From Phyllobates terribilis (taxonomy: Eukaryota): DNA of 64,000 nt. The DNA lies in NCBI RefSeq assembly GCF_046119375.1, contig NW_027362765.1, forward strand, positions 440,076,001 to 440,140,000, read 5' to 3'. The first letter of the stretch is position 1, and every line of letters starts with the position of its first letter. The position numbers were made by a program, and so were the translations under genes. Shown in pieces: positions 10,877 through 61,873 of this stretch. The notes below the pieces were generated by a model. The model was given only the letters and a program-made list of their open reading frames with translations, was not told the origin of the DNA and searched no databases.

Positions 10877-12100
10877 TGTAGCACCCTGAGGATTCGGCTG
10901 CTACAGGGGTACTGCACCTCAACCAGAGGTGTGGTATTCCACTCCCGGGTAAGGATGGAGTGTGGATCTGAGCTCAGTAAGCTGCATGCACTACACACAT
11001 CCCATTTCCGAGGAACAGACCAACAGTACTCCCACTTAGAAATGTGCAGGTACGACCGAGTCTGTTCCTGGCTGGAGTGGGAGGGGGGTGGTACATCCCA
11101 GTAGTGTAGGGGCAGATAGGGGGAGCAGCCTGGGTAAAGATAGGAGCTCATTGGGTGCTGGTCACCTGAGCTCACACATAGAGGGAGTATTTAAGGTGGG
11201 CACCATCTAAGATCAGGGTCAGTCTGTGAGAGGTCAGTCAGTCAGGGTCAGTCTGTCAGTCTTTTGCAGAGCAGTGGAAGAAAGCAGAGGAGCAGAGCAG
11301 CCCCAGGCCCAGAGTGAGAGTGGAGCAAGAAAGACCCAGAGAGGGAGACAGAAGGAACTCTGAGAACCCACATACAAACACAGGGTGAAGAGTTGGCAAC
11401 AGGGTACCGGATCCCAAACTGGTGGGGGCTAAAGCATACCTCAGCCAGAGACCGGAGGCCGTGGGCAGGATCTGCCACGGCCACCCACCACATCCACCCT
11501 GAAGGCAAACCACGTGTAGGGTCAGGGAACCCAAGGCCAAGGGTCTCCCAACAGAAGGCCCGAGGGAGCTGGACCTAGGTGGATCCCTGGTGGGGACGGC
11601 CAGAAGAAAGGACAAGAAGGAGGGCTCAGGGACACGCTCCGGACTTGCTTGGGGGTTGGCTGAATCCAGGACCTGGTGGACGCAGCACGGCTCGGGTGGT
11701 CACTCAAGGCCGGAGTGACCGGAATATCTGCAGTAAGTAAACACCCTGAACTGCACAACCCGACTCTGTCTTTAATTATCATCTACGCTGCACCACCACA
11801 ACCCCCATCCTCTGCACCTGACCCCCTGAGGCCATACCCCTCCCGTTGGGGGTTATACTATCTAAAGCTGCACCAACACCATCAGCCTCAGCGGACCCTG
11901 CTGCAGCGGCGGCCGTAGTGACCGCAAATCAGCGGGTGGCGTAGTCGACACAAAAGAACATCTAGTAACATCATAAGGACTGCCACACACTGAGCTTGAC
12001 ACCCTGGGCACGGACCGGGTCACAGCCACTCGGAGACTACAACCCCCATCTGATCCGGCTCCGGGTATTCCCTAAAGAATATGGCCCAGGGGGCGCGTCA
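10877..12100 (+). repeat. 5' LTR of X1 (1224 bp)
   Basis: TATA-like TATTTAA at about 11188; AGTAAA poly(A)-like signal at about 11737; near-identical to 14605-15829. Confidence 0.95.
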
Positions 12101-14132
12101 ACTTTGGCGTAGTCGGCAGGATCTCGTGCCCGCAACACCCGGGTACTGCGTGCCTGAAGAAAAGAACAAGTTTACCTCAAAAAGAAGTCTCCTGCCGGTT
12201 CCGGAGGGTCCCCGCCATCGGACCCCATCACAGGTCGTTTCCCGCCGGTTGTCCGCCATTAACAGCTTTTTCCCGCCATCTGCAGAGTTTCCCGCCACTG
12301 GGAGACGATTCCCGCCATTTCCAAAGGTTTCCCGCCTTGGGGGAGCGGACGCCATTATGGGCGTGCCAGAGGGTGGCAAGAGGCCACCTCCCATCGTGGG
12401 CCAGGACCGAAAATGGCGCCAAAAGTGGAAACCGCCCCCACCAACAGAGACTGTGATGCTAGAGGTGTCTGTCAGCGTGAAAGAACTGCCCCTGGAGCTG
12501 ACAATCACCAAGTGGCCCCGGGACCGCCCTCGAAGTGGGAGGACTGAGAAGAAGAGAACAAAGATGGGTGTCGCCTGGAGCAGTCTGGAGAGAGCGCACC
12601 CGGAGACAAGAAGCCTAGAGCTGAGTCCAGAAGAAGCTTACCCGGAGATGGAAGAAGAGCAGAGCAGCACCGGCCCGCTGGCCAGGAGCCTGCTGGAGAC
12701 AACGGAAAGAGAGCAGAGCAGCACCGACCCGTTGGTCAGGAGCCTGCTAGAAGCAACGACCCCACTAGGCTTAGTGGAGGTCCTGGCACAGCTCCCCCGA
12801 GATCGGGAGTGTGCGCAGACTGCGCTGGAGGGCCTCGCACGGAGGATGGCCCGGGTGCAACGAGAGACATTGGCGGAGTGGAGCCGAGAGATGGCCCAGC
12901 GGACCGAGACTCGTCAGCGGAGCACGCCACCCGAGACGAGGAGACAGACCGCCTCTGAGGATGGCGCAGGAGGACTGAAGGCCGGAGACGGCGCCGAGAA
13001 GGGAGCCGAACGAAAGGAGGCAGGTAAAGGGGACGTTTCTACCCCAAACCGGGAAACCGCGTACCTGCCCCAGCTCCCCGTCGCAGAGCCCGAAGTACCC
13101 CCTGCCGTGCCCGTAACCGCAACGTCACTGCCACAGACTAGGCCTCAACCGGAAGCCGAAGCCGCGACCCCTGTGACGTCACACGCCTCGACCCCGAGCG
13201 TGACCAAGCAGGAAGTACCACCAGCCTGGTCGCAAGGCCTAGTACCCCCGGGCGCCGCAATACCAACAGCGCCCCCTACCTCCGCGGAGCCACCGGCCTG
13301 GTCGCAGGGCCAAGTAGCCCAGGGCGCCGCCGTCCTTACGGTGCCCTTCACTTTCCAGGTGCCCCAGGCCTGGCCGCAAGGCCTGGGCAACCCGGGCGCC
13401 ACCACCACCGCGCCCATAAAACCAAGAGTGCCGCATCTGGGAGAAGATCTGTTCGCCCAACACACATGGCCGGACGGGCAGCCCTTTGTGTGGCCCAGGG
13501 AGTACTACGAACAAGAGCTCCAAAAGAGGACAAGGCCCATGTGTGAGCCCCTGATCCCGGCTCCGAAGCCCGTAAAAAGGACCTCGCCCCCGCTAGAGGA
13601 GGCACAGTTTGAGTGGGACCCCACCGGAGAAGACCTCATGGGGTTCACTCAGGAGACTCGGGCAGCCGCAGCGGATCGTGCAGAGTGCTGCCGCCAGCAG
13701 CTCGAGGTCTTTGAGAGGGAGCAGAGAGAGAGGCGGGTCCGGGAACAACAAGCCCAAATAAAGAGCGCGGAGCAGAAGAGCCGGGCCAGGAGGAGTCCCC
13801 GTGCAGCTCATGGTCCCCCTTCCACCGGGACTGTGATCAAGTTTAATATGCAGCACGGGTGGGGCTTCATCCGAGATCACCGCACCCCAGGCGACGTCTT
13901 CGTGACAAGAAGAGACGTTGAGTCCCACCTACCGGAGGGACACAGAGGACGTGACCTGTATATAGGGGACGAGGTCACCTTCACCCGGCACAAGTGTGCC
14001 AAAGGACCCTACGCCCTCCATGTGCATCGCCTGACGGAGGAGGAGCTGCGGTGTGAAGAGGAGCAAGAGGACCCGGACGGGTCTGAAGCTAAAGTGAATC
14101 ACAAAGAAAGAGCAGGAGGACGTCGTCGTTGA
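12081..14132 (+). CDS. Cold-shock-domain protein encoded by X1 (683 aa from the first ATG; 591 aa from the better-context ATG at 12357)
   Basis: CSD at about 13824-14030: TGTVIKFNMQHGWGFI (RNP1-like), DVFVT (RNP2-like), LYIGDEVTF...KGPYALHV. It is preceded by Pro/Ala-rich repeats and a charged coiled-coil-like stretch, and followed by an acidic then basic tail. Confidence 0.85.
   Translation: MAQGARQLWRSRQDLVPATPGYCVPEEKNKFTSKRSLLPVPEGPRHRTPSQVVSRRLSAINSFFPPSAEFPATGRRFPPFPKVSRLGGADAIMGVPEGGKRPPPIVGQDRKWRQKWKPPPPTETVMLEVSVSVKELPLELTITKWPRDRPRSGRTEKKRTKMGVAWSSLERAHPETRSLELSPEEAYPEMEEEQSSTGPLARSLLETTEREQSSTDPLVRSLLEATTPLGLVEVLAQLPRDRECAQTALEGLARRMARVQRETLAEWSREMAQRTETRQRSTPPETRRQTASEDGAGGLKAGDGAEKGAERKEAGKGDVSTPNRETAYLPQLPVAEPEVPPAVPVTATSLPQTRPQPEAEAATPVTSHASTPSVTKQEVPPAWSQGLVPPGAAIPTAPPTSAEPPAWSQGQVAQGAAVLTVPFTFQVPQAWPQGLGNPGATTTAPIKPRVPHLGEDLFAQHTWPDGQPFVWPREYYEQELQKRTRPMCEPLIPAPKPVKRTSPPLEEAQFEWDPTGEDLMGFTQETRAAAADRAECCRQQLEVFEREQRERRVREQQAQIKSAEQKSRARRSPRAAHGPPSTGTVIKFNMQHGWGFIRDHRTPGDVFVTRRDVESHLPEGHRGRDLYIGDEVTFTRHKCAKGPYALHVHRLTEEELRCEEEQEDPDGSEAKVNHKERAGGRRR
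12105..12122 (+). promoter_or_regulatory. Primer-binding site for tRNA-Ser
   Basis: TGGCGTAGTCGGCAGGAT is the reverse complement of the vertebrate tRNA-Ser 3' end (...ATCCTGCCGACTACGCCA) and lies 4 nt after the LTR. Confidence 0.9.
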
Positions 14133-14604
14133 GTACAGCGGAGTAGAAGCTGTATATAGTTGCCCGTCGGGGCACAGTGAACCGTTGCTGCTAATATAGT
14201 CCCCGTTGGGACCAGAGAATTGAACTGTTACCCGTATTTCCCTTAATCCCACTGACCGAGGACTGAGAGCGGTCATCCCTTTCCTAAATATCTGGCCGAG
14301 GACTGAGAGCGGCCATATCCCTTTGTATATAGTTGCGCGTCCTAAAGCGCCCCCTACTGGTTTTACAGGAAAACCATTTTTCTAGAGAAACTGTTGCATT
14401 TTTCCCGGGCACACGTTGCACAGTGTCCGGAGGAGGAGCTAGAAGCGAGGAAAAGTCTACAAGAATGTTTTATATGAAAAGTTTTATTGATATATATATA
14501 TATAATGTTTTATATGATGTTTTATATGTTTATGCAAAAATTGTATGTTTGTGGTGTTTATTCTTTTACAGCCCGAGGACGTGCTGTGATTTACCAGGGG
14601 GGAA

Positions 14605-15829
14605 TGTAGCACCCTGAGGATTCGGCTGCTACAGGGGTATTGCACCTCAACCAGAGGTGTGGTATTCCACTCCCGGGTAAGGATGGAGTGTGGATCTGAG
14701 CTCAGTAAGCTGCATGCACTACACACATCCCATTTCCGAGGAACAGACCAACAGTACTCCCACTTAGAAATGTGCAGGTACGACCGAGTCTGTTCCTGGC
14801 TGGAGTGGGAGGGGGGTGGTACATCCCAGTAGTGTAGGGGCAGATAGGGGGAGCAGCCTGGGTAAAGATAGGAGCTCATTGGGTGCTGGTCACCTGAGCT
14901 CACACATAGAGGGAGTATTTAAGGTGGGCACCATCTAAGATCAGGGTCAGTCTGTGAGAGGTCAGTCAGTCAGGGTCAGTCTGTCAGTCTTTTGCAGAGC
15001 AGTGGAAGAAAGCAGAGGAGCAGAGCAGCCCCAGGCCCAGAGTGAGAGTGGAGCAAGAAAGACCCAGAGAGGGAGACAGAAGGAACTCTGAGAACCCACA
15101 TACAAACACAGGGTGAAGAGTTGGCAACAGGGTACCGGATCCCAAACTGGTGGGGGCTAAAGCATACCTCAGCCAGAGACCGGAGGCCGTGGGCAGGATC
15201 TGCCACGGCCACCCACCACATCCACCCTGAAGGCAAACCACGTGTAGGGTCAGGGAACCCAAGGCCAAGGGTCTCCCAACAGAAGGCCCGAGGGAGCTGG
15301 ACCTAGGTGGATCCCTGGTGGGGACGGCCAGAAGAAAGGACAAGAAGGAGGGCTCAGGGACACGCTCCGGACTTGCTTGGGGGTTGGCTGAATCCAGGAC
15401 CTGGTGGACGCAGCACGGCTCGGGTGGTCACTCAAGGCCGGAGTGACCGGAATATCTGCAGTAAGTAAACACCCTGAACTGCACAACCCGACTCTGTCTT
15501 TAATTATCATCTACGCTGCACCACCACAACCCCCATCCTCTGCACCTGACCCCCTGAGGCCATACCCCTCCCGTTGGGGGTTATACTATCTAAAGCTGCA
15601 CCAACACCATCAGCCTCAGCGGACCCTGCTGCAGCGGCGGCCGTAGTGACCGCAAATCAACGGGTGGCGTAGTCGACACAAAAGAACATCTAGTAACATC
15701 ATAAGGACTGCCACACACTGAGCTTGACACCCTGGGCACGGACCGGGTCACAGCCACTCGGAGACTACAACCCCCATCTGATCCGGCTCCGGGTATTCCC
15801 CTAAAGAATATGGCCCAGGGGGCGCGTCA
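14605..15829 (+). repeat. 3' LTR of X1
   Basis: Direct repeat of 10877-12100, preceded by the PPT. Confidence 0.95.
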
Positions 15830-19189: not shown

Positions 19190-19238
19190 AATGGAAACTG
19201 GAAGTCTTTCCTTAGAGATATTTTTGGGCTGGACTTAC

Positions 19239-21607: not shown

Positions 21608-24600
21608 TGATGCGCCCCCTGGGCCATGTTGTGCAGCGTTGCGCATGCGGGGAATACCCGGAGCCGGATCTGATAGGGGTAGTAGTCCTCGTGGCGGTGA
21701 CCCAGTCCGTGCCCAGGGTGTCAAACCAAGTGGCAGAACTTAGAGTAAGATGTTATATTGTTCGACTACGCCACCCGTTGATTGCGGCTATGAAGCCGCC
21801 GCTGCAGGGCAGACCGCTGAGGCCGGTGGTACGGGTGTGCAGCGTGGATAGTATAACCCCCAACGGGAGGGGTATGGCCCCAGGGCAGCAGGCGAAGAGG
21901 GGATGATGGTAGTGATGTTATAGTAGTCCCCGTCCTAATAGTGCTAATGCGACAAGGAATCAGTGAGACGTACAGCTGCAGTTTTCAATGCTTTACTCAC
22001 AGTTCTTTATCAGGTCCCTTGTGCGCAGTCAAGACCGCCCGAGTCATGCTGCGTCCACCAGGTCAGGGACTCAGCCAACTCCCAGGCAATTCCAGAGCGT
22101 GGTCCAGAGCTCCCCTCTCTTCCTTCCTACTGGCCGTCCCCACCAGGGACCCACCTTTGTCCGGCTCCCTCGGGCCTTTTGGTGGCGAAGCCTTTCCCGG
22201 TTTCCCTGACCCTATACGGTATGCCTTCCTGGTGGATATGGTGAGGGGTCGCGCCAAGACTTGACCACGACCTCCGGTTCCTGGCTAAGGATAATTGGCC
22301 TCCACCAGTTTGGGATCCGGTACCCTGTTCTGCCAACCCTTCACCCGTTATTCCGTGGGATCTTAGGGTTCCCTCTTTTCTTGCGTCTCTGGGCCTTTCC
22401 TGGTGTTTATGTTCCTTCTTCCTCTTACTTCTCTCTCTCTCTCTGCTTCAGGCCTCCACTTCAGGCCTGGCTCTGGAGCTGGGCCCGGACTGAGCCACAG
22501 CTCCCTGTCAGCCCTCTCTGGCTGAACTCTCTCAGACTGCACTCCTCTGCACCTCCTCTGCACCTCCTCCCCGTTCTATCATGGTGCCCACCTTTTATAC
22601 TCCCTTCTGACACCCGAGCCCAGGTGACCAGCACCCAATGGGCTCCTACCTATGCCCAGAGTCCCTCCCCTGTCTGCTCCTACACCACTGGGATATTCCT
22701 CCCCCCTCCCCACTCCAGCCAGGGACAGACGCTGTCGTACCTGCACATCTATCTGGTGGGAGTACCGTTGATCTGTCCCCCGGAAATGGGGTGAGTGTAG
22801 TGTATGCAGCTAACTGAGCCCCGTTCCACACTCCATCCTTACCCGGGAGTGGAATACCGCACCTCTGGTTCGAGGTGCAATACCCCTGCAGCAGCCGAGT
22901 CCTCGGGGTGCTACATTCCCCCCTGGTAAATCACAGCACGTCCTCGGGCTGGAATAGAATAAAAACATTTTAAACATACAAATATTTTTAAAGTGCACTC
23001 GCATATAAGACATTAACTATGAACTCATCCCCTTTATGAGAGGTACTCTTTTCTTCTTAACGTTACTGGCATAAAACATTTTTAAAACATTCTACTAATG
23101 CCACCGGAACTCTTTTGTAAAACACTATATAAAACTTTTGGCATTATCATTTTAGCAGCATATTAAACTTTCCATTATAAGACATTTTTTTTACACAAAC
23201 ATTTTCAACACATATGCTTGAGCTCCGGCCACTGTGCAACTTGCGACCAGGTAAAGTGCAACAGACACTACTTCCAAGGTAGAAAGGCAGTTCTTATAAA
23301 ACCAATAGGGGGCGCTTTAAGAAACGCAACTATGTACAAGGGTATGGCCGCTCTCAGTCCTCGGCCAGTGGGAATAGGGGAATGGCTGCTCACAGTCCTC
23401 AGCCTGGTTAGGGATTAGGGGCACACAGGTAACAGTTCTTTAACAGTTCCATACTAGTCCCAACGGGGACCACACTTCAATCAGCAAGAGTCCTTGTACC
23501 CCGACGGGTAACTATATACAGTTCCACTTTACCATTCTCTAATAATGGTGTCCTCCTTGTTCTTCCGGGTAGTCTTCAGGTCTGTTCGGACCCTCGATGT
23601 ACTCTGTTTCTTGGTGGTACTGTAGCTCCTCCTCCGTGAGCCTGTGAACGTGGAGGGTGTATGGTCCTTTGGCACCCTTGTGCTGGGTGAAGGTGACCAC
23701 ATCACCCGGGTAGAGATCACGTCCGTGGTGTCCCTCCGGCAGGTGGCTGTGGCAGTGAAGCTCTCCTCTGTATCCGACATCCTCCTCCCCCTAGTGGACC
23801 GTGGCCTACCTTGCGATGATCCTCTTCCGTAGGCCGCGGCTCCGCAGTGGATCGTCAGGGTTGAGGACCTTCCGTCGCGCTCCTGTGACGTCGGCGTCTG
23901 CTGGGCTCCTTCCAGGACCTTACGCAACGTCCGGACGTGAGGCGGAGCTTCAGTTCTCGGGCGCTTTCGGAGTCCACGCCCCTCTTCTTCCCGCGCGGCG
24001 TCCTCAAGATGGCGTCCAATGGCGGGAAAACTCCACGGATGGCGGGAAGAAGGCAGAAGATGGCGTCGGATGGCGGGAAAACTCCACGGATGGCGGGAAT
24101 CCTCTGGAATTGGCGGGAGACTTCTTTTTGAGGTACATGTGAACTTTTCTTCAGGCACGCAGTACCCGGTGGTTGCGGGCACGAGATCCTGGGCCCCCTG
24201 GGCCTGTGCTGCTGCTGCTGTGCAGGGGGAATACCCGGAGCCGGATCTGATAGGGGTAGTAGTCCTCGTGGCGGTGACCCGGTCCGTGCCCAGGGTGTCA
24301 AACCAAGTGGCAGAACTTAGAGTAAGATGTTATATTGTTCGACTACGCCACCCGTTGATTGCGGCTATGAAGCCGCCGCTGCAGGGCAGACCGCTGAGGC
24401 CGGTGGTACGGGTGTGCAGCGTGGATAGTATAACCCCCAACGGGAGGGGTATGGCCCCAGGGCAGCAGGCGAAGAGGGGATGATGGTAGTGATGTTATAG
24501 TAGTCCCCGTCCTAATAGTGCTAATGTGACAAGGAATCAGTGAGACGTACAGCTGCAGTTTTCAATGCTTTACTCACAGTTCTTTATCAGGTCCCTTGTG

Positions 24601-25492
24601 CGCAGTCAAGACCGCCCGAGTCAGGCTGCGTCCACCAGGTCAGGGACTCGGCCAACTCCCAGGCAATTCCAGAGCGTGGTCCAGAGCTCCCCTCTCTTCC
24701 TTCCTACTGGCCGTCCCCACCAGGGACCCACCTTTGTCCGGCTCCCTCGGGCCTTTTGGTGGCGAAGCCTTTCCCGGTTTCCCTGACCCTATACGGTATG
24801 CCTTCCTGGTGGATATGGTGAGGGGTCGCGCCAAGACTTGACCACGACCTCCGGTTCCTGGCTAAGGATAATTGGCCTCCACCAGTTTGGGATCCGGTAC
24901 CCTGTTCTGCCAACCCTTCACCCGTTATTCCGTGGGATCTTAGGGTTCCCTCTTTTCTTGCGTCTCTGGGCCTTTCCTGGTGTTTATGTTCCTTCTTCCT
25001 CTTACTTCTCTCTCTCTCTCTGCTTCAGGCCTCCACTTCAGGCCTGGCTCTGGAGCTGGGCCCGGACTGAGCCACAGCTCCCTGTCAGCCCTCTCTGGCT
25101 GAACTCTCTCAGACTGCACTCCTCTGCACCTCCTCTGCACCTCCTCCCCATTCTATCATGGTGCCCACCTTTTATACTCCCTTCTGACACCCGAGCCCAG
25201 GTGACCAGCACCCAATGGGCTCCTACCTATGCCCAGAGTCCCTCCCCTGTCTGCTCCTACACCACTGGGATATTCCTCCCCCCTCCCCACTCCAGCCAGG
25301 GACAGACGCTGTCGTACCTGCACATCTATCTGGTGGGAGTACCGTTGATCTGTCCCCCGGAAATGGGGTGAGTGTAGTGTATGCAGCTAACTGAGCCCCG
25401 TTCCACACTCCATCCTTACCCGGGAGTGGAATACCGCACCTCTGGTTCGAGGTGCAATACCCCTGCAGCAGCCGAGTCCTCGGGGTGCTACA
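21608..25492 (-). mobile_element. Element X2: non-autonomous relative of X1, with a gag start fused to the 3' half of the CSD gene
   Basis: LTRs 21608-22915 and about 24191-25492; flanking duplication CATAG; PPT complement TTCCCCCCT after 22915; 3' UTR homologous to X1; PBS largely deleted at about 24190. Confidence 0.92.
23539..23748 (-). pseudogene. C-terminal half of the CSD protein in X2 (69 aa plus stop), out of frame with the upstream gag ATG at 23780
   Basis: SHLPEGHHGRDLYPGDVVTFTQHKGAKGPYTLHVHRLTEEEL is 36/42 identical to the X1 protein. Confidence 0.9.
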
Positions 25493-38938: not shown

Positions 38939-38988
38939 GATCGCTCAGAGAGGTCGTCCTAGACAAGAATAAACCCTCTCCATCTCTG

Positions 38989-41900: not shown

Positions 41901-42345
41901 CTCCTTCCATGTATCTCTCCTCAAACCTGTGGCACTTAACTCTTTTTCCAAGTCTACAGGTACGCCTCCTGCTCCTGTTTCCGCTGAAGACGAGTTTGAG
42001 GTAGAGAGCATTCTGGCCACCAAAAGGATAAGAGGAAAGACCTTTTTTCTAGTGGATTGGAAGGGGTTTGGTCCTGAGGAGAGAACGTGGGAGCCCCGGG
42101 AGAACATCCATGCCCCGCTCATCCTTGATAAATTTCTCTCCGGCCTAAAAAAGGGGGGGCCTAAAGGGGGGGGTACTGTAGCGTCGGTGTCCCTGCCTCC
42201 TGCTAGGCAGAGACGCCGTTCCTCTCACCTCCCTGCTCCGTCCTCGGCATCCTCTTCCCGCGCTGCTGGCAGCGCTCGCCGGGCACTGTGCTTAGGGCGT
42301 GCGCGCGCTCCCTCTCTCTTAAAGGGGCCGCGCACGCCGTCCTAA
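38989..42345 (+). pseudogene. pol: Element F Pol (PR-RT-RH-IN-chromodomain), one frame with two nonsense codons
   Basis: ORFs 38989-39696, 39718-41166 and 41179-42345 share a frame. Protease QLDSGA; RT motif mutated to YLDV; chromodomain FEVESILATKRIRGKTFFLVDWKGFG. Confidence 0.93.
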
Positions 42346-46313: not shown

Positions 46314-46365
<52 letters not shown>

Positions 46366-47907
46366 GACGCGCCCCCTGGGCCTGTGTTGTGCGGGGGAAC
46401 CCGGAACCGGGCCTGTTGTAGAATGCTGGGGGTTGTAGACTCCGTGTGGCGGTGACCTGGTCCGTGCCCAGGGTGGTCGAACCAGTGGCAGTCTAAATGT
46501 TGTAATAAGTGTCCGACTACGCCACCCGTGGATTGCGGTCAGTGGGGACCGCCGCTGCGCTGCCGACCGCTGAGGCTGATGTTGGTTGCGCAGCCGAGTA
46601 TGGGATAACTCCCCACGGGAGAAGTATTGCCTCAGGGCAGCTAATGTGGAAGATGATGGGAGTGATGGTGTGAGGGTCCCAGTGCTAATGGTGCAGGAGC
46701 GGCAAGGAATCACAGAGACGTGTGGTGCAGTTCAGGGTCTTTACTGATGGTACAAGGCAGACCCTCCCGGGAGTACTGGCTAGTATAAGGGGCCTGGTCA
46801 GTCTGCGAGCAAGCAGGAGTTCCCCTGGCCAGGTGGAGTTGTAGGCCTCCCCGTTTATCTGCACTCTTCCTGGCTACCTTGCTGTCAGCGGTTACAAGTA
46901 GCCCACGTCCCTGAGTATACCGTGTGGTGCTCACCCGTATGGCTGGTGACTTGGGGCCTTCTGTTAGCCTCCGCTCCTGGATGGCGGCGCTGGTCCCTTC
47001 TTTGTGACTGAGCCTCCGGGCTTCTATGGCCAGAGGACCTGGAATCCCCTGCCGGCTGGTTTCTGCTGCTGGGTGTATATCAGTCCCCACAGCCTCGGAC
47101 TCCTGTGTCCGGTTTTAGTGTCTTCGTCCAGGGCGAGCTCTGCTCAGCTCCAGCCCCTGGACTTCAGCTACTGCTCCTCCAGAGCTCCTGATCTCACTTT
47201 CCCTCTCCAGACTCTGACTCTGTCTGCAGCTTCACTCTCTAATCCCGCCCCAGACCCAGTTTATAAGGGCAGATTCCTCCCCTCCCAGGTCTGGGTGGGC
47301 CGTGTTGCATGTTTAGGGCTCCTGACCAGAGAAACCTCCCACTTGCTCTCAGACATAATATCTCTATTACTGTGGCAACCAGACCCCTGGGGTGTCACAT
47401 TCCCCCCTAGTAAATTTTAGTACTCTGGGACTAAACACATTTTTTTTTAAAGAAACATAAATACAGGGTATAATAATAATACAATAACATATTCACAAGA
47501 AACTTTAGTCTGTAGAGGTCACGGCGTTTCTGTGACCGGGTGTCCATATCACCCAAGGTGAAGTTTATGAAGCAAAGGGGGTGTCCATGTCACCCAACAA
47601 GGCGAAGTCTTGGCACAGAATAGGGGACCTGTCCAAAGCAAACCCCTTGCGTTGTCCTTGGGCGTGGCTGCAAGGGTAGACTAACTACTTTGGGCCGCAA
47701 GGAGGCCACGCCAGACAGGTTTTCTCTTCCGCGGCCGTCTTCACAAGAGGCACCAAGGTGCAACTATCTACAAAACTGTTCCGGTTATCCAGTGTCCATA
47801 ACCTGTTAGTCCAAATAAATCTGCAGGGTAACTGAGAAACATAATTAGTAACAGGCAACAAACATAAACCATAAACATTTAAACAGATAAATTCACAGTG
47901 CATTGGT

Positions 47908-50900
47908 TTAGATTCTCCAGCGAGCGGGCATCTGACCTCTAGTGACTCTAGTGGACCTACGGAGCTCACTAACTGGTTCTGCACTACAGGGTGTAGGAGG
48001 TGTTATGGGCAAGCTGGGCAGCTTTCTGCGCACTCTTTGGCTCACTAGGGGCACGGCAGGCTCACTACTAGCAGAGGGTTGATCCTCCTGTACTGCTGGT
48101 GTGGACTCTTCTGCCTCTTGGGCCGGCTGCTCTTCCAGCTCTACCGGTTCCTCTGTAGGCACTTGCAGGGCTGGCTGGAGAAAGGTGAGGACGGGTACCA
48201 CGACAGCGCCGTTTACTTGTGTCCAAGACCGGGGGAAGTCTCCGAGTATGGTACTGATCATTTCTTCCCTTTCCTCTGCGGGTTGAGGGTTTTCTTGATC
48301 TTCTTCAGGGCTTTGCAGCTGCTCGGGACACTTCTTCAGGTGGTCTCTGGAGACAATGGCTGTGGTTTCTCCTCCATCCTTACTGATTACGCAGATTTTT
48401 GGGTTCTCATGGCTTGATGGCAGTACGGTGTACGGGTCCTTCTCCCACTGGTCGTCCAACTTGTGGAGCCGCCTCTTCCTCTTCAAGACCTGCTCTCCAT
48501 GTACCAGGGGAACAGCGGGAGCATACTGGTTATAAGCCTTCTCTTGCCTTTCTCTAGCTTGAGACAGACTTCGCTCGACGCTCTCCTGTACTTTCCGATA
48601 CTGCTGCTGCCGTTCTGTATCCCAGTCTGCCTCTGGCGAGGTGTCCTCAGGCGTCAGGACTCCCATATCCAGGTCAATAGGCAGCTTACCAGGTCTTGCT
48701 CTCATTAGGTAAGCTGGGGTACAGTTGGTGGAACTTACAGGGATGTGGTTATACAGGTCCACCAGATCGGGCAGTTTCTCAGGCCACAGACTGCGTTCTT
48801 CCAGGGGCAATGTTTTTAGCAGATCTATCACCACCTGGTTCATCTTCTCGCAGAGTCCATTGGTTTGAGGGTGATAGGGCGTTGTTCTTATCTTCTTGCA
48901 GCCATACAGGTTGCAGAACTCCTGGAAGACCTCCGCTTCGAAGGCTGGTCCTTGGTCTGTCAACACTTGGTCCGGGTACCCGTGTGGACGGCAGAAGTGC
49001 TGCTGGAAGGCTCTAGCTGCTGTTTGAGCCGTTAAGTCCTTGACCGGGACCACCACCAGGAACCGGGAGTAATGATCTACGATTGTGAGGGCGTAGACAT
49101 ACCCAGATCTGCTTGGAGCCAGTTTCACATGGTCCAGGGCTACCAGTTCCAGTGGCTGTCTGGTGATGATGGGCTGCAAGGGAGTCTTCTGGCTGGCTCG
49201 GTCTTTTCTTCTCAGGTGGCACGGGCCACAGTCTCTGCACCACCTCTCGATGGCTCCTCTCATGCCTACCCAGTAGAACCGTTCACGCAACAAGAACTCC
49301 AGCTTCTTCCATCCGAAATGCCCAGCTCCGTTGTGGTATGCCTCCAGAACCATAGCCGCGTCTCGTCTTGGGACCACTACCTGCCAGGTCAACTCATGTG
49401 TTCGAGAGTTAACCATTCTCCGGCACAGCTTCTCCCTGTAGAGGAACAGCTTACTTTTCTCCTTCCACAGTTGCTTGGTCTCCTCCGGAGCATCTGGGTC
49501 AAGACGGGCATCGGCCTGGGTCAGCATTTCCTTCACCAAATGGACTGCGGGATCACTGTCTTGCGTCTCCGCCCAGTTGTAGTGGGGCAAGGGATTGAAC
49601 GTCACGGAGCGCCTGTCCTTCACACGGTGGGAATACAGGGTAATCCCATGACGGTGGAACGCAGGGAGCTCAACTTCTTCCAGATCTTCTGGATCTTCCC
49701 CTACGTCCGGTAAGTTCGGTATTCTAGACAGGGCATCCGCGTTGGCATTTGAGCGTCCTGCCCGGTATTTGATGGTGAATTCAAAGTTGGACAGGCGGGC
49801 CATCCATCTCTGTTCCAGGGCACCGAGCCTTGCAGTGTCCAGGTGTGTCAACGGGTTGTTATCCGTGTACACGGTGAATTTGGAGGAGGCAAGGTAATGC
49901 TTGAAACGTTCGGTCACTGCCCACACTACTGCCAGGAACTCCAGCTTGAATGAGCTATAATTCTCAGGGTTCCTCTCCGTGGGCCGTAGCTTTCGGCTGG
50001 CGTAAGTGATTACCCGTTCTTTCCCTTGCTGGATCTGGGACAGTACGGCTCCTAGCCCGATGTTGCATGCGTCCGTGTGGAGGATAAAGGGCTGGCTGTA
50101 GTCTGGATATGCCAGGATTTCATCCCCCGTGAGGGCCATCTTCAGCTGGCAGAAGGACTCCTCTTCCAGCTTTTCCCACCTGAAGGGCGGCTTCTGGTTT
50201 TTGGCTTTCCGAGATTGACCTATCAGGAGGTCCTGCATAGGGGCTGCCATTTTGGTGAAACCGGGAATGAATCTTCGGTAGTAGCCTACCAACCCGAGGA
50301 ACTGCCGCACTTCCTTTATGCTGGAGGGTCTTGGCCAGTCCTTAATCACAGTGATCTTATCAGGGTCGGGAGCCACTCCGTCAGCACTCACCACGTGTCC
50401 CAGGTACTGCACCTTTGGTTTCAGGAGGTGACACTTGGAGGGTTTCACCTTTAGGCCGTAATTCGCCAGAGCTTCGAAAACTTCTGCCAGGTGTTTCAGG
50501 TGGTCCTCGTAGGTCTTGGAATAGACGATGACATGTCCAGGTATAACAGGACCGTCTCGAAGTTCCGGTGTCCCAGACAGCATTCCATCAACCGTTGGAA
50601 GGTTCCTGGTGCGTTGCAGAGCCCAAACGGCATGCAGTTAAATTCACTGAGACCCATCGGGGTGGTGAATGCGGTCTTCTCCCGGTCCGCCTCTGCTACA
50701 GGAACCTGCCAGTACCCGCTAGTGAGATCCAAAGTAGAGAAGAAGTTAGCAGATTTTAATGCAGCTAAGGACTCTTCTATCCTTGGTAACGGGTACGCAT
50801 CTTTGTGTGTGATACGGTTGACCTTCCTGTAGTCTACACACATTCTCATGGTGTTGTCTTTCTTTTTCACTAAGACTAGTGGAGCTGCCCAGGGGCTACA

Positions 50901-52163
50901 GCTGTCCCTGATTACCCCAGCCTCCTTCATGTCTCTAAGCATCCCCTTGGCGTGTTGGTAGTGTGCCGGGGGTACGGGTCGGTATCTCTCCATTATGGGA
51001 GGATGGTCTCCCGTGGGGATGTGGTGTTCTACCCCCTTTACTCGCCCGAAGTCTAGCGGGTGTTTACTAAACACTCTCTCGTACTCTCGAACCACCCGAT
51101 AGACTCCCTGTTTCTGGTGTGAGGGAGTGGAGTCAGTACCCAAATGCAGTTGCTGACACCAGTCCTCCATTGGTTTCTTAGAGCCGTTACCTTCCTCTGG
51201 TTGAGATGGAGGCAAGGGTTCCACGGCCTGTACAGAATTCTGGTTTATGGTGAACAATTTGGCTAGCGTGGCATACCGGGGCAGGTGTACTTCTCTCTCC
51301 CCGATATTTATGATGCGAACGGGCACCCTCCCATGGCGTACATCGACCACCCCCCGTGCTGTCAAAATGGTGGGCCTACTGTCTGAGTAGACGGGTTCTA
51401 CCATTGCTTGGTAGTCTCTACCTCTTAGACCAATAGCTGCCCGGCACCAAATCATCATCTCACTTTTTGGGGGCATGGCAATAGGGAACGGGTCACACAT
51501 TCTCACGCTACCTATCTCACCACCAGATAGTTCCACCTGTTGCCGCTTCATCAGTGCCCGGATCTCTTTTTGGAGCACACGCTGCTGGCCGGAACTGGCG
51601 TTCTTGGCAACCTGCTGTAAAATGAGAATCACCTCTGCAAGACAATTTTCAATCACATTACTTCCCAAGGTTATTCTAGGGTGACTCTCATGACGGTCTA
51701 TGTCCACTATAATCAGTCCTTGTGCCGCCAGTTCGACTTTACCGATCTTAATGGTCACCTCTTTGAATCCCACCTGCGGCACGGGCTGACCATTGCTGGC
51801 GATGATACTCAGGTCGTCATCTGGGTAGCGGGTTATGTCCGAGTCATTCCAGTACTGCTTGAAGAGCACGTACGGGATGGTGGTGACCTGTGACCCGGTG
51901 TCTAGTAGGGCACTCATAGGAATGCCATCCAGTACCACAGGCAAGATTGGACGTCCCCCTACGTATTTATCACGCCAGTTTGATGGGCCTGATGGTCTTA
52001 TGCCTGGGGGTTGGCCCTCTACCCCAGGTTGTGCCCGTTTAAATGACAGTACCTTGCCACATGTCCGGGTTGATTGCAGTGGCGGCAGATGGGTCGTCCG
52101 TCCTCGTTGTATCTGTCGCTGGGTCTTCCTCTGGCCAGTGGGGTCCTCCTCAGTCGGTGCCAC
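47908..52163 (-). CDS. pol: Element C Pol (PR-RT-RH-IN) with one 1-nt deletion in the YLDD codons at about 50534
   Basis: ORFs 50496-52163 and 47908-50583. Protease LLDTGSQ; RT LDLTSGYWQ, FGLCNAPGTFQR; RH LHTDAC, TDNNPL; IN H-H-C-C zinc motif, ALDH, TDQG, NGLCEKMN. No chromodomain. Confidence 0.93.
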
Positions 52164-53002
52164 GGGACGTCCTCCGGTCCGGATGCCAGCTGGATCTTTC
52201 CTGGAGAAGAGACCTGTAAAGACTGCACAGTTCTGGTTAGCGCGGCAACGCTCTTAGTCAGCTCTTGGACCTGATGGTGCAGGTCTGTAGCCGGGTCACT
52301 GTTTAAAGCCTGCGCATCAGCTCCCACAGGCCCTGCAGACAAGGGCGCCGTCTCCTGGTGGTAAGTGATAGCAGGGCGCCTGTGGGTCACAGCGCCACCT
52401 GGTGCCGGTTCTCGGAGCACCCGGATGGCTCTGTCCTTAAACTGTGCAAAGTCCAGGTCAGGGTCCTGTAAGGCCATTGCCCGCAACTGGGTTCGGTGGG
52501 CATTGCACAGTAGACCCTCAATAAATTGTTCAGTCAACAGCTTATCTTCATTTCCCATGCTGTCAGGGTCTGCCTGCTTAATGGCTCTCAGGGCCTCTTG
52601 TAGGTTTAGAGCATAGTCTCTTATACTCTCATGTGCCCGTTGTTTGCACCCATAATATCTTAGTTTTATTTCGGCTGAGGTGCGGGTGTCAAATGTGTCT
52701 TTCAGCCGGGTTAGTATGTCTCTGACAGTCCTCTTCCTCCCAGGTGGCCAGGACTTTACCTCCCTTTGGGCTGCCCCGATTAATTGGGCCACCAGGATGC
52801 TCACTTTTTGCTCTTCTGTGAGGGGGTACACCTGGAAGAGGCTATCCAGTCTTTCTCTAAAGTCATTTAGAGTATGTGACTCCCCTGAGTACTGGGGTAG
52901 CCAGGTTGCCCCCGGGATATAGGGCATGGTGAATGGCATGACTGCTGCAGCGGTTGCGCTGGTGGTAGCTGTGGCAGTGGAGCTCCCCTCGGTATCCGGC
53001 AT
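52019..53002 (-). CDS. gag: Element C Gag (PNMA-like) with CCHC knuckle
   Basis: PWLPQYSG-like capsid start (TWLPQYSGE); CRHCNQPGHVARYC; slippery T TTA AAC at 52043-52037 with pol in the -1 frame. Confidence 0.92.
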   Translation of the reverse strand: MPDTEGSSTATATTSATAAAVMPFTMPYIPGATWLPQYSGESHTLNDFRERLDSLFQVYPLTEEQKVSILVAQLIGAAQREVKSWPPGRKRTVRDILTRLKDTFDTRTSAEIKLRYYGCKQRAHESIRDYALNLQEALRAIKQADPDSMGNEDKLLTEQFIEGLLCNAHRTQLRAMALQDPDLDFAQFKDRAIRVLREPAPGGAVTHRRPAITYHQETAPLSAGPVGADAQALNSDPATDLHHQVQELTKSVAALTRTVQSLQVSSPGKIQLASGPEDVPWHRLRRTPLARGRPSDRYNEDGRPICRHCNQPGHVARYCHLNGHNLG

Positions 53003-53433
53003 CCTCCTCCCCCCTAGTGGACCGTGGCCTACCTTGCGATGCTCTTCTTCCGTAGGCCGCGGCTCCGCAGTCGATCGTCGGGGTTGAGGACCTGGCGTCG
53101 CGCTCCGATGACGTCAGCGTCGCTCTTCCTCCCTTCCAGGACCTTGCGCAGCGTCAGAGCGTGGGGCGGAGCTTCGGATCTCGTGCGCTTTCGGCGTCCA
53201 CGCCCCTCTTCTTCCCGTGCGGCGTCCCGAAGATGGCGTCCGAAGGCGGGAAGCAGCTGCGGATGGCGGGAAGAAGGCAGAAGACGGCGGGAAACGGTCC
53301 AAGATGACGTCTGATGGCGGGAATCGGCTCCGGATGGCGGGAAAAACGACTCCGGACGGCGGGAAACTTCACCACAGGTAAGTATAAAAGTCTCTTTTTC
53401 AGGCACGCAGTACCCGGTGGTTGCGGGCACGAA

Positions 53434-53451
53434 ATCCTGCCGACTACGCCA
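53434..53451 (-). promoter_or_regulatory. tRNA-Ser primer-binding site of C
   Basis: The plus strand reads ATCCTGCCGACTACGCCA, identical to the tRNA-Ser 3' end. Confidence 0.92.
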
Positions 53452-54516
53452 AAGTTGACACGCCCCCTGGGCCTGTGTTGTGCAGGGGAACCCGGAACCG
53501 GGCCTGTTGTAGAATGCTGGGGGTTGTAGTCTCCGTGTGGCGGTGACCCGGTCCGTGCCCAGGGTGGTCAAACCAGTGGCAGTCTAAATGTTGTAATAAG
53601 TGTCCGACTACGCCACCCGTGGATTGCGGTCAGTGGGGACCGCCGCTGCACTGCCGACCGCTGAGGCTGATGTTGGTTGCGCAGCCGAGTATGGGATAAC
53701 TCCCCACGGGAGAAGTATTGCCTCAGGGCAGCTAATGTGGAAGATGATGGGAGTGATGGTGTGAGGGTCCCAGTGCTAATGGTGCAGGAGCGGCAAGGAA
53801 TCACAGAGACGTGTGGTGCAGTTCAGGGTCTTTACTGATGGTACAAGGCAGACCCTCCCGGGAGTACTGGCTAGTATAAGGGGCCTGGTCAGTCTGCGAG
53901 CAAGCAGGAGTTCCCCTGGCCAGGTGGAGTTGTAGGCCTCCCCGTTTATCTGCACTCTTCCTGGCTACCTTGCTGTCAGCGGTTACAAGTAGCCCACGTC
54001 CCTGAGTATACCGTGTGGTGCTCACCCGTATGGCTGGTGACTTGGGGCCTTCTGTTAGCCTCCGCTCCTGGATGGCGGCGCTGGTCCCTTCTTTGTGACT
54101 GAGCCTCCGGGCTTCTATGGCCAGAGGACCTGGAATCCCCTGCCGGCTGGTTTCTGCTGCTGGGTGTATATCAGTCCCCACAGCCTCGGACTCCTGTGTC
54201 CGGTTTTAGTGTCTTCGTCCAGGGCGAGCTCTGCTCAGCTCCAGCCCCTGGACTTCAGCTACTGCTCCTCCAGAGCTCCTGATCTCACTTTCCCTCTCCA
54301 GACTCTGACTCTGTCTGCAGCTTCACTCTCTAATCCCGCCCCAGACCCAGTTTATAAGGGCAGATTCCTCCCCTCCCAGGTCTGGGTGGGCCGTGTTGCA
54401 TGTTTAGGGCTCCTGACCAGAGAAACCTCCCACTTGCTCTCAGACATAATATCTCTATTACTGTGGCAACCAGACCCCTGGGGTGTCACATATATATATA
54501 TATATGTATATATACA

Positions 54517-56070: not shown

Positions 56071-56073
<3 letters not shown>
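54517..56073 (-). mobile_element. Tc1 family H copy 1, decayed
   Basis: TIR CACTGCTCAAA..ATAAAGGGAAC; ORF 54930-55616 has [27 protein letters not shown]. Confidence 0.92.
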
Positions 56074-56143
<70 letters not shown>

Positions 56144-56150: not shown

Positions 56151-57572
56151 CAGTACAGTCCAAAAGTTTGGACACTCCTTCTCATTTAAAGATTTTTCTG
56201 TATTTTCATGACTTTGAAAATTGTACATTCACACTGAAGGCATCAAAACTATGAATTAACACATGTGGAATTATATACTTAACAAAAAAGTGTGAAACAA
56301 CTGAAAATATGTCTTATATTCTAGGTTCTTCAAAGTAGGCACCTTTTGCTTTGATGACTGCTTTGCACACTCTTGGCATTCTCTTGATGAGCTTCAAGAG
56401 GTAGTCACCGGAAATGGTTTTCACTTCACAGGTGTGCCCTGTCAGGTTTAATAAGTGGGATTTCTTGCCTTATAAATGGGGTTGGGACCATCAGTTGTGT
56501 TGTGCAGAAGTCAGGTGGATACACAGCTGATAGTCCTACTGAATAGACTGTTAGAATTTGTATTATGGCAAAAAAAGCAGCTAAGTAAAGAAAAACGAGT
56601 GGCTATAATTACTTTAAGAAATGAAGGTCAGTCAGTGTGAAAAATTGGGAAAACTTTGAAAGTGTCCCCAAGTGCAGTTGCAAAAACCATCAAGCGCTAC
56701 AAAGAAACTCGCTCACATGAGGACTGCCCCAGAAAAGGAAGACCAAGAGTCACCTCTGCTTCTGAGGATAAGTTTATCCGAGTCACCAGCCTCAGAAATC
56801 GCAGGTTAACAGCAGCTCAGATTAGAGACCAGGTCAATGCCACACAGAGTTCTAGCAGCAGACACATCTCTACAACAACTGTTAAGAGGAGACTTTGTGC
56901 AGCGGGCCTTCATGGTAAAATAGCTGCTAGGAAACCACTGATAAGGACAGGCAACAAGCAGAAGAGACTTGTTTGGGCTAAAGAACACAAGGAATGGACA
57001 TTAGACCAGTGGAAATCTGTGCTTTGGTCTGATGAGTCCAAATTTGAGATCTTTGGTTCCAACCACCATGTCTTTGTGCGACGCAGAAAAGGTGAACGGA
57101 TGGACTCTACATGCCTGGTTCCCACCGTGAAGCATGGAGGAGGAGGTGTGATGGTGTGGGGGTGCTTTTCTGGTGACACTGTTGGGGATTTATTCAAAAT
57201 TGAAGGCATACTAAACCTGCATGGCTACCACAGCATCTTGCAGCGGCATGCTATTCCATCCGGTTTGCGTTTAGTTGGACCATCATTTATTTTTCAACAG
57301 GATAATGACCCCAAACACACCTCCAGGTTGTGTAAGGGCTATTTGACCAAGAAGGAGAGTGATGGGGTGCTATGCCAGATGACCTGGCCTCCACAGTCAC
57401 CAGACCTGAACCCAATCGAGATGGTTTGGGGTGAGCTGGACCGCAGAGTGAAGGCAAAAAGGCCAACAAGTGCTAAGCATATCTGGGAACTCCTTCAAGA
57501 TTGTTGGAAGACCATTTCCGGTGACTACCTCTTGAAGCTCATCAAGAGAATGCCAAGAGTGTGCAAAGCAGT

Positions 57573-60500
57573 TGACGCGCCCCTGGGCCTGTGTCGCGCT
57601 GCGTTGCGCACGCGGGAGCTTACCCGGAGCCGGATCTCTTGAGGGTTGTAGTCTCGTGGCGGTGATCCGGTCCGTGCCCAGGGAGTCAGACTAAGTGGCG
57701 CTGTATTAGCGGTAGATGTTGGACGACTACGCCACCCGTTGAGTACAGCTAAGGAGCTGCTGCTGCAGGGCAGACCGCTGAGGCCGGTGGTAGGATTATG
57801 CAGCGTGATAGTATAACCCCCAACGGGAGGGGTATGGCCTCAGGGCAGCCGACGTGGATGATGGGGGTAGCAGGAACCACTCGGAGACGGTACGGTGTAG
57901 TTCAGGGTCTTTACTGGTGACAAAGATAGACCCTCCCGGAGTACTGGCTAGCGATTGGGGCCTGGTCAGTCCTTGAGCAGATGGGAACTCCCCTGGCCAG
58001 GCGGAGTTGTAGGCCTCCCAAACTAACGATACTCTTCCGGCTACCTTGCTAGGGGCGGGTATAAGTAGCCCACGTCCCTGAGTGTACCGTGTGGTGCTCA
58101 CCCGTATGGCCGGTGACTCGGGGCCTTCTAGTAGCTTCCGCTCCACGACGGCGGTGCTGGTCCCACGCGTGTGACCGTGCCTTCGGGTTTCTGGGCCAGA
58201 GGACCTGCAATCCCCTGCCGGTCGGTTTCTGCTGCTGGATAGGAGTTAGTCCCCACAGCTTCGGACTCCGGGTCCGGTAAGATATCTTCTCAGTCAGGGC
58301 GAGCTCTGCAGCTGCCAGCCCCTGACTCCTTGTAACACTTCTCCCACAGAGCTCCTGTTGTTTCTTCCCATAGCTGCTTCTCTTCTCTGCCTCTACTTCT
58401 GGCATGGCCCAGGAGCTGGGCCCAGCCGGTGCCACAGCTCCCTGTCAGCCCTCCTGGCTGAACTCTCCCTCTGAACTCCCTCACCCTGCCTCAGCCCCAG
58501 GTTTATATAGGGGAAGTTCTTCCCCTCCCAGGACTGGGCAGGAGGTGTGGCATGCACAGGATCCCTGACCAAGAGACCTCCCACCTGCTCTCAGACATAA
58601 CATTGCTGTTACTGTGGAAACCAGACCCCTGGGGTGCCACATTCCCCCCTAGTGAAATTTAGTACTCCGGGACTAAACATATTTTTAGAAAAACATAACA
58701 AGGTATAAACAATAATAATACAATAAGAAAAACACATAAAGATGGTTACGGCATGTCCGCAACCGGGTTCAGTCTTTGAAGAAAAGCAAGGTGTCCATTT
58801 CACCAAAACAGGGAGACGTAACCAGGTAGGGGTCTGTCCTGCCCCGAGTCCTTAACAGTCTTTAGTCCATTCCTGGGTTACGCTCCAACCATGTACAAAG
58901 GATTCCCGGTAAATCCACCAAAGACTCCCATAAATTACTGGAAACACATAATTATTTACAGGATATGGCCGCTCTCAGTCCTCGGCCAGTGGGGATAAGG
59001 AATGGCTGCTCACAGTCCTCAGCCTGGTTTAAGATAGGGGCACATGGGGAACAATTCACTAATCCCAACGGGGACCATATTTTAATTAGCAGCAGTCCTT
59101 GTACCCTTACGGGTAACTATTTACAGCTCTTTATTCACGCTACTTCCCTTCAGTAGCTATGTCCTCTTTGTGCTCCCTCCTGAGGGTAGTCCTCAGACCC
59201 GTCCGGGTCCTCTTGGCTTTCCTCGTATTGGTAGTACTGCAGCTCCTCCTCGGTTAGCTGGGTTAGTATCTCTGCGACAGTCCTCCTCCCAGGTGGCCAG
59301 GACTTTACCTCCCTTTGGGCTGCCCCGGTTAATTGGGCCACCAGGATGCTCACTTTTTGCTCTTCTGTGAGGGGGTACACCTGGAAGAGGCTATCCAGCT
59401 TTTCACTAAAGTCATTCAGGGTATGTGACTCCCCTGAGTATTGGGGTAGCCAGGCTGCTCCCGGGATATAGGGCATGGTAAAAGGCATGACTGCAGCAGC
59501 GCTGGCGCTGGCGGGGGTTGAGGCAGTGAAGCTCTCCTCCGTATCCGACATCTTCCTCCCCCCTAGTGGACCGTGGCCTACCTTGCGATGATCCTCTTCC
59601 GTAGGCCGCGGCTCCGCAGTGGATCGTCAGGGTCGAGGACCTTCCGTCGCGCTCCTGTGACGTCAGCGTCTGCTGGGCTCCTTCCAGGACCTTACGCGAC
59701 GTCTGGACGTGAGGCGGGGCTTCAGTTCTCGCGCGCTTTTGGAGTCCACGCCCCTCTTCTTCCCGCGCGGCGTCTTCAAGATGGCGTCCAACGGCGGGAA
59801 AACTCCACGGAAGGCAGGAAGAAGGCTGAAAATGGCGCCGGATGGCGGGAATCTTCACCAATGGCGGGAAGAAGGCTGAAGATGGCGCCGGATGGCGGGA
59901 ATCTTCACCACTGGTAAGTTTGAACAGTCTTTTTCAGGCATGCAGTACCCGGTGGTTGCGGGCACGAGATCCTGCCAACTACGCCAAAAGTTGACGCGCC
60001 CCTGGGCCTGTGTCGCGCTGCGTTGCGCACGCGGGAGCTTACCCGGAGCCGGATCTTTTGAGGGTTGTAGTCTCGTGGCGGTGATCCGGTCCGTGCCCAG
60101 GGAGTCAGACTAAGTGGCGCTGTATTAGCGGTAGATGTTGGACGACTACGCCACCCGTTGAGTACAGCTAAGGAGCTGCTGCTGCAGGGCAGACCGCTGA
60201 GGCCGGTGGTAGGATTATGCAGCGTGATAGTATAACCCCCAACGGGAGGGGTATGGCCTCAGGGCAGCCGACGTGGATGATGGGGGTAGCAGGAACCACT
60301 CGGAGACGGTACGGTGTAGTTCAGGGTCTTTACTGGTGACAAAGATAGACCCTCCCAGAGTACTGGCTAGCGATTGGGGCCTGGTCAGTCCTTGAGCAGA
60401 TGGGATCTCCCCTGGCCAGGCGGAGTTGTAGGCCTCCCAAACTAACGATACTCTTCCGGCTACCTTGCTAGGGGCGGGTATAAGTAGCCCACGTCCCTGA

Positions 60501-61060
60501 GTGTACCGTGTGGTGCTCACCCGTATGGCCGGTGACTCGGGGCCTTCTAGTAGCTTCCGCTCCACGACGGCGGTGCTGGTCCCACGCGTGTGACCGTGCC
60601 TTCGGGTTTCTGGGCCAGAGGACCTGCAATCCCCTGCCGGACGGTTTCTGCTGCTGGATAGGAGTTAGTCCCCACAGCCTCGGACTCCGGGTCCGGTAAG
60701 AAATCTTCTCAGTCAGGGCGAGCTCTGCAGCTGCCAGCCCCTGACTCCTTGTAACACTGCTCCCACAGAGCTCCTGTTGTTTCTTCCCATAGCTGCTTCT
60801 CTTCTCTGCCTCTACTTCTGGCATGGCCCAGGAGCTGGGCCAAGCCGGAGCCACAGCTCCCTGTCAACCCTCCTGGCTGAACTCTCCCTCTGAACTCCCT
60901 CACCCTGCCTCAGCCCCAGGTTTATATAGGGGAAGTTCTTCCCCTCCCAGGACTGGGCAGGAGGTGTGGCATGCACAGGATCCCTGACCAAGAGACCTCC
61001 CACCTGCTCTCAGACATAACATTGCTGTTACTGTGGAAACCAGACCCCTGGGGTGCCACA
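57573..61060 (-). mobile_element. Element D: non-autonomous mosaic of C-like and X1/X2-like sequence
   Basis: 1069-bp LTRs 57573-58641 and 59992-61060 (about 10 differences by eye); 4-bp TSD CAGT; PBS with one mismatch 59969-59986; PPT 58642-58650. Confidence 0.95.
59150..59551 (-). CDS. In-frame fusion: C-like Gag N-terminus plus the acidic tail of the CSD protein (133 aa)
   Basis: AAAVMPFTMPYIPGAAWLPQYSGESHTLNDF...VKSWPPGR matches C Gag. LTEEELQYYQYEESQEDPDGSEDY matches the X1/X2 tail (LTEEEL..QEDPDGSE). Confidence 0.75.
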   Translation of the reverse strand: MSDTEESFTASTPASASAAAVMPFTMPYIPGAAWLPQYSGESHTLNDFSEKLDSLFQVYPLTEEQKVSILVAQLTGAAQREVKSWPPGRRTVAEILTQLTEEELQYYQYEESQEDPDGSEDYPQEGAQRGHSY

Positions 61061-61276
61061 CAGTCATCAAAGCAAAAGGTGGCTACTTTGAAGAACCTAG
61101 AATATGAGACATATTTTCAGTTGTTTCACACTTTTTTGCTAAGTATATAATTCCACATGTGTTAATTCATAGTTTTGATGCCTTCAGTGTGAATGTACAA
61201 TTCTCATAGTCATGAAAATACAGAAAAATCTTTAAATGAGAAGGTGTGTCCAAACTTTTGGTCTGTACTATATACA

Positions 61277-61328: not shown

Positions 61329-61873
61329 ATTATCTAACAACATATACATGATAAAACACAATTAAGAAGTACTTTCTGTTAATTCATTGAGATCTTCAGG
61401 AGTTAGAGGGGATGTCGGCCTTAGGCTACAAGTCTGCAGTCACTCCTGCACTCTGCGCTGTATGTTCTGGTGCTGAGAGCAAGTGATTATGTGACCGCAA
61501 GTAAGCGATTTGCATACTTCTGGCCACATTCCGACTAGACGTGCCTGGCATTGCTCAATGCACTTGCATTGAGCGAGGCCGTGCTTATCTGGTGGGCACG
61601 TGACCGCATGTATGCAAATACGTGCCAGCTGCTGATGCCGACACTGGAGAATCCTCACAGCAAACACTACAATACATCAAGCATGTGACAGCTGCAGCCA
61701 ATCACTTGTCTCAGCGGTTATGCATTTTATGTTTAGGCTTGGCCACAATGGACAATGATTGGTTGCAGAGGTCATGTACATGATGTATGGCACATGATTG
61801 CTGCAATAAGTAAGCAGATACAGGCAGGTACCACCGCAGCGACAGTGCTGGAATAGAAATATATAAGAATTTA

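Follow-up and report, generated by a model that had tools for sequence, protein, structure and literature searches.

A Ty3/gypsy element of a poison frog combines blocks of a helper retrotransposon family and of a cold-shock-domain satellite

How does a retrotransposon without a pol gene come to join the front of one family's gag to the last part of another family's only reading frame, and then move? This question is raised by an element, here called D, in a window of 64,000 nucleotides of Phyllobates terribilis DNA (contig NW_027362765.1). The window is animal DNA, rich in Tc1 and Ty3/gypsy elements, and the nearest named proteins for its ORFs come from poison frogs. D occupies positions 57573..61060 of the minus strand, on which all of its parts given below also lie, and is 3488 nt long, with TG...CA ends and paired LTRs (5' LTR 59992..61060, 1069 nt; 3' LTR 57573..58641). 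As the original prediction held, D has its own TSD and matching LTRs: CAGT is found on both sides (plus strand, 57569..57572, within a Tc1 transposase ORF, and 61061..61064), and the LTRs are identical at 1059 of 1069 positions, with 10 mismatches and no gaps. The flanks, once joined, make one Tc1. D is a genuine non-autonomous Ty3/gypsy element that inserted in Tc1 recently; it is without pol, and a related autonomous family is present. The Tc1 that bears D is itself flanked by two Tc1-like copies, 54547-56094 and 61853-63396, which are inverted and 95% identical. An assembly gap of 132 N (1017-1148) is distant from D.

The signals expected of a mobile element are in place. The PBS (59969..59986), which we take to be a match to tRNA-Ser, is as in elements C and X1 (described below) except for one base, the PPT is the same as C's, and both adjoin the LTRs. 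The limits of U3, R and U5 are placed by a TATA-like box in U3 (60923-60928) and an AGTAAA poly(A)-like signal in R (about 60329-60334) that occurs in the LTRs of all four related elements.

Those four elements are D and three others in the window. Element C (46365..54490, minus strand) encodes a PNMA-type gag (PF14893, E 5e-6) with a zinc knuckle, followed by PR-RT-RH-IN, and has no cold-shock-domain (CSD) ORF; it is a relative of the helper and not the donor. C gag is 96.6% identical to a Phyllobates terribilis protein. No ORF follows its pol, which is separated from the LTR by about 500 nt and is split by an RT frameshift near the YLDD motif, though the LTRs of C differ by only 6 bases. C is inserted in a (TA)n run at a Tc1 end. 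Element X1 (10877..15829, plus strand; TSD ATTG) is a satellite with one ORF of more than 600 aa that ends in a cold-shock domain (about 13824-14027; PF00313, E 4.3e-8), and is young, with 2 LTR mismatches. Element X2 (21608..25492, minus strand; TSD CATAG) has an X1-type U3 and 3' end, together with a leader of the type that we assign below to an unseen family, C'. In X2, gag breaks off at codon 13 and the second half of the CSD follows in another frame, the switch lying at a CCACC microhomology after that codon. The TSD of X2 is 5 nt, versus 4 nt in D and X1, and about 21 nt are missing at its 5' LTR end and PBS, leaving the PBS partly deleted. Since the LTR pairs of C, D, X1 and X2 have only 2-14 mismatches, all four insertions are young. 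Two stretches, 9729-26464 and 36957-43086, contain further gypsy elements whose integrase ends are chromodomain-like, and X1 and X2 are nested inside the first.

Is D a mosaic of such elements? Its blocks were aligned locally with C, X1 and X2, with 30 shuffles per pair, and the shuffle maxima were 24-33. The U3 (60899..61060) is of the C-family type, matching C at 128/155 positions (83%, score 160) and neither X1 nor X2, and the greater part of R (60303..60776) is also of the C-family type (394/460 to C, 86%, score 467). A C-like U3 and R had been predicted, and this stands for U3 and most of R; what was overlooked is a purine-rich block of 91 nt at the start of R (60808..60898), which is X2-like (78/91) and absent from C. 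The U5 (59992..60286) had been called X2-like. X2 is indeed the nearest (249/288, 86%, score 315, versus 206/240 for X1 and 221/269 for C; quartet sites D+X2 16, D+C 5, D+X1 3), but the module is common to all four elements and is only moderately closer to X2. The leader and gag start (59516..59851) are of the X2 type, with 317/335 matches (95%) to X2 versus 272/316 (86%) to C, and with 36 informative sites uniting D and X2 as against a single one for D and C.

The gag block of D matches C at 237/255 positions (93%, score 411). It had been described as nearly identical to C, which overstates the likeness: of 98 codons, 15 carry a replacement and 9 a silent change, 8 of the replacements fall within the first 19 codons, and C is not the parent. 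Next comes a CSD-satellite piece of about 300 nt (58957..59255), made up of the part of the satellite ORF that follows the domain and a 3' UTR with the GAGGACTGAGAGCGGCCAT motif. The ORF tail matches X2 at 72/89 and X1 at 51/56 positions (score 54 each), the 3' UTR matches X2 at 152/173 (score 195), and identity of tail and UTR to X1 and X2 is 81-91%; the proposed X1/X2-like 3' UTR is borne out, both of the motifs quoted for it and for the C-like end being present. The cold-shock domain itself is absent from D (0 Pfam families), which has only sequence downstream of the domain. A 26-nt motif of the 3' UTR gave 0 matches in metagenome and viral contigs. Which satellite is nearer? In a MAFFT alignment the tail and UTR of D lean to X2 over X1 by 37 sites to 20 (p 0.03), in a cruder pairwise projection by 30 to 26, and the tail holds an X1-like run (runs p 0.015). 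It may thus represent a third satellite lineage, with an X1-like run inside an X2-leaning tail.

The element closes with a C-family 3' UTR and polypurine tract (58642..58956). The whole of these 315 nt had been thought C-like; the last 85 nt are (74/81, 91%, score 96), and 58771-58819 match C weakly, but 58881-58961 have no match to C, X1 or X2 above shuffles. The 3' crossover is located within about 58880-58957.

The mosaic is real: every block has one neighbour that it matches well beyond the shuffle level, and the distances to C and to X1/X2 are far from uniform along D. Less clear is who the donors were. The best identities of C, X1 and X2 to the blocks of D are 81-95%, and on this ground we reject all three as direct parents. 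Because their LTRs differ by 2-14 bases, against a distance of 5-19% between D and its neighbours, they are better regarded as cousins of the donors. The picture of a multi-crossover mosaic of C, X1 and X2 therefore survives as a mosaic, with unseen relatives as donors, and one of its crossovers, in the leader, probably dissolves, as we now discuss.

Part of the interior of D is present in 20 of the 24 outside sequence runs listed, and 8 DNA runs from 2 studies hold 75-84% of its sampled 31-mers. When contigs from 4 of those runs were aligned to D at 82% likeness, one from a second organism (run X17, record 17) was found to bridge the gag/satellite junction; it covers 59010-59301, 292 nt, with 6 differences and no gaps, and 44 nt of it lie on the gag side. 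It is the one contig among the 32 matches listed that supports the junction. As it is gap-free and comes from a second organism, the junction is no artefact and is not confined to one organism. One might suppose that in a genome so rich in repeats D is a chimera of the assembly, and none of the contigs listed spans all of it. That reading has to contend with the TSD, the matched mosaic LTRs and the restored Tc1 flanks, besides the 31-mers and the bridging contig, and we regard it as exceedingly improbable. The central claim of the original prediction, that D is a recombinant of helper and CSD satellite that later transposed, is upheld by the TSD, the LTRs, the block matches and the bridged junction.

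Other contigs depart from D at 59256 and run on as ordinary gag. Compared by eye, these loose ends have 27 of 30 letters as in C and the 3 differences are silent, so that there is a helper distinct from C. Summed contig depth, which is not copy number, was in two DNA runs 91k and 1.08M for gag, 89k and 1.15M for the leader, 181k and 2.13M for R, and 4.5k and 83k for the tail; a single bin at the 3' end gave 96k and 1.05M, its neighbours being about 4-fold lower in DNA run X1. The leader is thus at the gag level, R is about double, and the tail is 20- and 13-fold below gag; in the other two runs the tail is 6- and 26-fold lower. This shape, across leader, gag, R, 3' end and tail, points to a full-length family without the tail. 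We call it C', and judge from the contig pools, which are the form in which it is known rather than as a whole element, that it would be an abundant full-length sister family of C with a leader of the D/X2 type, ordinary gag and no CSD tail.

The leader of C' bears on the number of crossovers. At both of the sites separating C from X2 in the leader among the 40 rows listed of 240, the X2 base accounts for 92-97% of the depth. So large a pool of leaders could not come from the satellite, given the scarcity of its tail, and the X2-type leader would be native to C'. The X2-like leader of D, then, is probably native to C' and was also taken up by X2, and the leader is rejected as a crossover block because the abundant pool that shares gag has the X2-type leader too. 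The purine-rich block that opens R has an intermediate standing: many contigs of the family are without it, as in the joints 60761->60899 and 60819->60894, and its depth in DNA runs is 6-9x above the tail and 3-7x below R. It may be a variable block, or a further exchange of either direction. Single contigs of run X10 with the joints 59214->59522 (side 22) and 59332->59536 (side 38) are weak hints of more junction types.

What path led to D? The account that we consider probable is that D is a C' element for which reverse transcription in a C' particle changed template twice, at short microhomologies, so that about 300 nt of CSD satellite took the place of everything between gag codon 99 and a point shortly after pol, and that D is mobile in trans. 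A C' particle would have taken in an X2-like CSD-satellite RNA along with its own. While the minus strand was being made, reverse transcriptase would quit the C' template within the 3' UTR, copy the satellite's 3' UTR and the tail of its ORF over some 300 nt, and return to C' inside gag at a microhomology of a few bases; about 4.8 kb, comprising all of pol and the greater part of gag, would be lost. The LTRs, PBS, leader repeats and PPT of C' would be retained, so that helpers could keep mobilising the product, and the present copy would have jumped into Tc1 recently. X2 would have arisen independently through exchange of this sort, and is built the other way round, from a satellite body and a helper leader. 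The template switching and the order of these events are our reconstruction.

Co-packaging is suggested by the PBS and U5 that the elements share and by the TTCCCGCC repeats of their leaders. D has four of the latter (59793..59901), and all 19 matches in the window lie in the leaders of C, D, X1 and X2, 4-6 in each (12239-12336 in X1, 24021-24099 in X2, 53245-53365 in C), as against a chance expectation for the window of 1.18 on average and 5 at most. Judged by its distribution, the repeat is a candidate shared signal for packaging or dimerisation. The leader of D is predicted to fold with mild stability only (z -1.74).

A different history would make D and X2 separate internal deletions of a rare or extinct parent that carried gag, perhaps pol, and the CSD ORF, with only the U3 and 3' ends swapped later. 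D and X2 do have different gag/CSD junctions, as had been claimed (codon 99 in frame in D, codon 13 out of frame in X2), and neither could be derived from the other by deletion, D keeping more of gag and X2 more of the CSD. In every block that they share (R block, U5, leader, tail, UTR) D is also closest to X2, and this fits a common ancestor of the two as well. Their divergence, however, is not uniform (leader 5.3%, U5 13.9%, R block 14.3%, UTR 12.1%, tail 19.1%; Fisher p 0.01-0.0001), although part of the unevenness is due to constraint on the leader, where C and X2 differ by 11%, against 16% in U5. Further, pol is the last ORF of C, DNA runs show the tail at a 13-20-fold lower depth than gag, and the CSD relatives of five frog species are single-domain proteins with no fusion found among proteins, which are blind to a separate downstream ORF. 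Finally, the U3 and 3' ends of X2 and D differ, so that at least one recombination between families is needed regardless. A gag-pol-CSD parent is disfavoured, for an abundant family more than for a rare one, and we rate this history as unlikely.

Might the exchange have taken place in DNA? A satellite could have inserted in the same orientation into a C' copy, and two deletions or gene conversion could have left the 300 nt, which were then transcribed and moved. Nesting is common in the window (X1 and X2 in LTR elements, D in Tc1), and microhomology suits deletions as well. Yet the retained piece is exactly collinear, with the end of an ORF and its 3' UTR standing where a 3' UTR belongs. Nothing remains of a satellite LTR end, and a second collinear swap is seen in X2; an origin in DNA seems quite improbable. 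We return, then, to template switching in a C' particle, and to its product.

The switch in D lies at 59256..59258, at a microhomology of Arg/Gln-Leu codons with a GCT core common to D, C and X2. The in-frame passage from ILTQ to LTEEEL that had been reported is present, and D is in frame because the Arg-Leu codons occur in the same frame in gag and in the satellite ORF. The resulting ORF of 133 aa (59150..59551) consists of gag residues 1-99, a putative capsid N-lobe, and an acidic tail of 34 aa with 11 D/E and 1 K/R. One might be tempted to take the open frame as proof of function, an argument that we reject as the X2 junction is out of frame. In a low-confidence model of C gag (pLDDT 49) the junction falls in helix 93-105, just before the helices of the C-lobe; the best matches of this model are the PNMA2, Arc and PEG10 capsids, and are weak (E 0.03 and above). 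A PDB sequence search with C gag gave nothing relevant. The model of the D protein (pLDDT 57) had as its best fold match an unrelated structure (Z 5.2), and the matches of an atlas search were all under 0.9. None of 70 candidates was a relative of the D protein at its own length; a search at longer lengths, in which 6 of 1390 candidates scored, gave only gag-type proteins, none with a CSD, which is weak evidence. Among the listed runs with part of D, none is recorded as RNA; one contig of guessed-RNA origin covers the D tail and stops short of the junction.

The ORF is most likely a by-product. It may act as a dominant-negative capsid fragment, by analogy to RTL8 in the literature: RTL8, according to PMC11684626, is a fragment corresponding to the capsid N-lobe; it joins PEG10 particles and reduces them. 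The D product would share the N-lobe character of RTL8, but RTL8 is a domesticated gene. The Ty1 inhibitor p22, as PMC4599808 describes it, is a C-terminal Gag half made from an internal transcript, and so is the opposite half of Gag from that in D.

How novel is all this? LTR swapping was reportedly seen in soybean by Du et al. in 2010. Recombination between LTR families by way of cross-packaging is documented in PMC6894440, and chimeric non-autonomous LTR retrotransposons, including those of sugar beet, in PMC6894440 and PMC13570524. To judge by these, D resembles such chimeras in being a mosaic of autonomous and dependent elements with shared cis-ends that was mobile after recombination. 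D differs from them in being a vertebrate Ty3/gypsy element whose partner has its own cold-shock-domain ORF, and in that not only the LTR but also the interior was exchanged. Its helper relative resembles the amphibian PNMA-clade Ty3/gypsy elements (Metaviridae) of PMC11011659 in the PF14893 gag, the zinc knuckle and the PR-RT-RH-IN order, while D, unlike them, retains gag residues 1-99 only and no pol. Mixing of helpers and satellites is known in plants and yeast, and D is a further case of known recombination. A bolder reading is that poison frogs harbour an undescribed helper-satellite system in which LTR satellites with a captured cold-shock protein repeatedly trade cis-modules with their helper, and that D is a selected, RTL8-like brake on copy number in at least two species, its capsid N-lobe with acidic tail entering helper particles and spoiling them; we give it a slim chance.

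The partner deserves comment. CSD relatives in the five frog species (Phyllobates, two Ranitomeya, Anomaloglossus and Bufo) are stand-alone proteins that the annotations list as host genes, either uncharacterized or Y-box-like, and we infer that they likewise lie within LTR elements. None of the 152 matches of the CSD search resembled C gag or pol. In one Phyllobates terribilis model, XP_073510849, a CSD piece is joined to the front of the R3HCC1 gene, by a gene-model artefact or by exonisation. We found no description of a CSD-bearing LTR element in the literature, from which Repbase, most subscription papers and supplements lay apart and may hold one, and the satellite looks undescribed.

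What does D mean for these genomes? It presents block exchange between a helper and a satellite of vertebrate Ty3/gypsy type, with copies that can be dated, and the 8-nt leader repeat offers a packaging signal that can be tested. Derivatives like D may account for some of the repeats in these genomes that are still unclassified. More promising as a lead is the CSD satellite, an LTR element whose sole ORF ends in a cold-shock domain.
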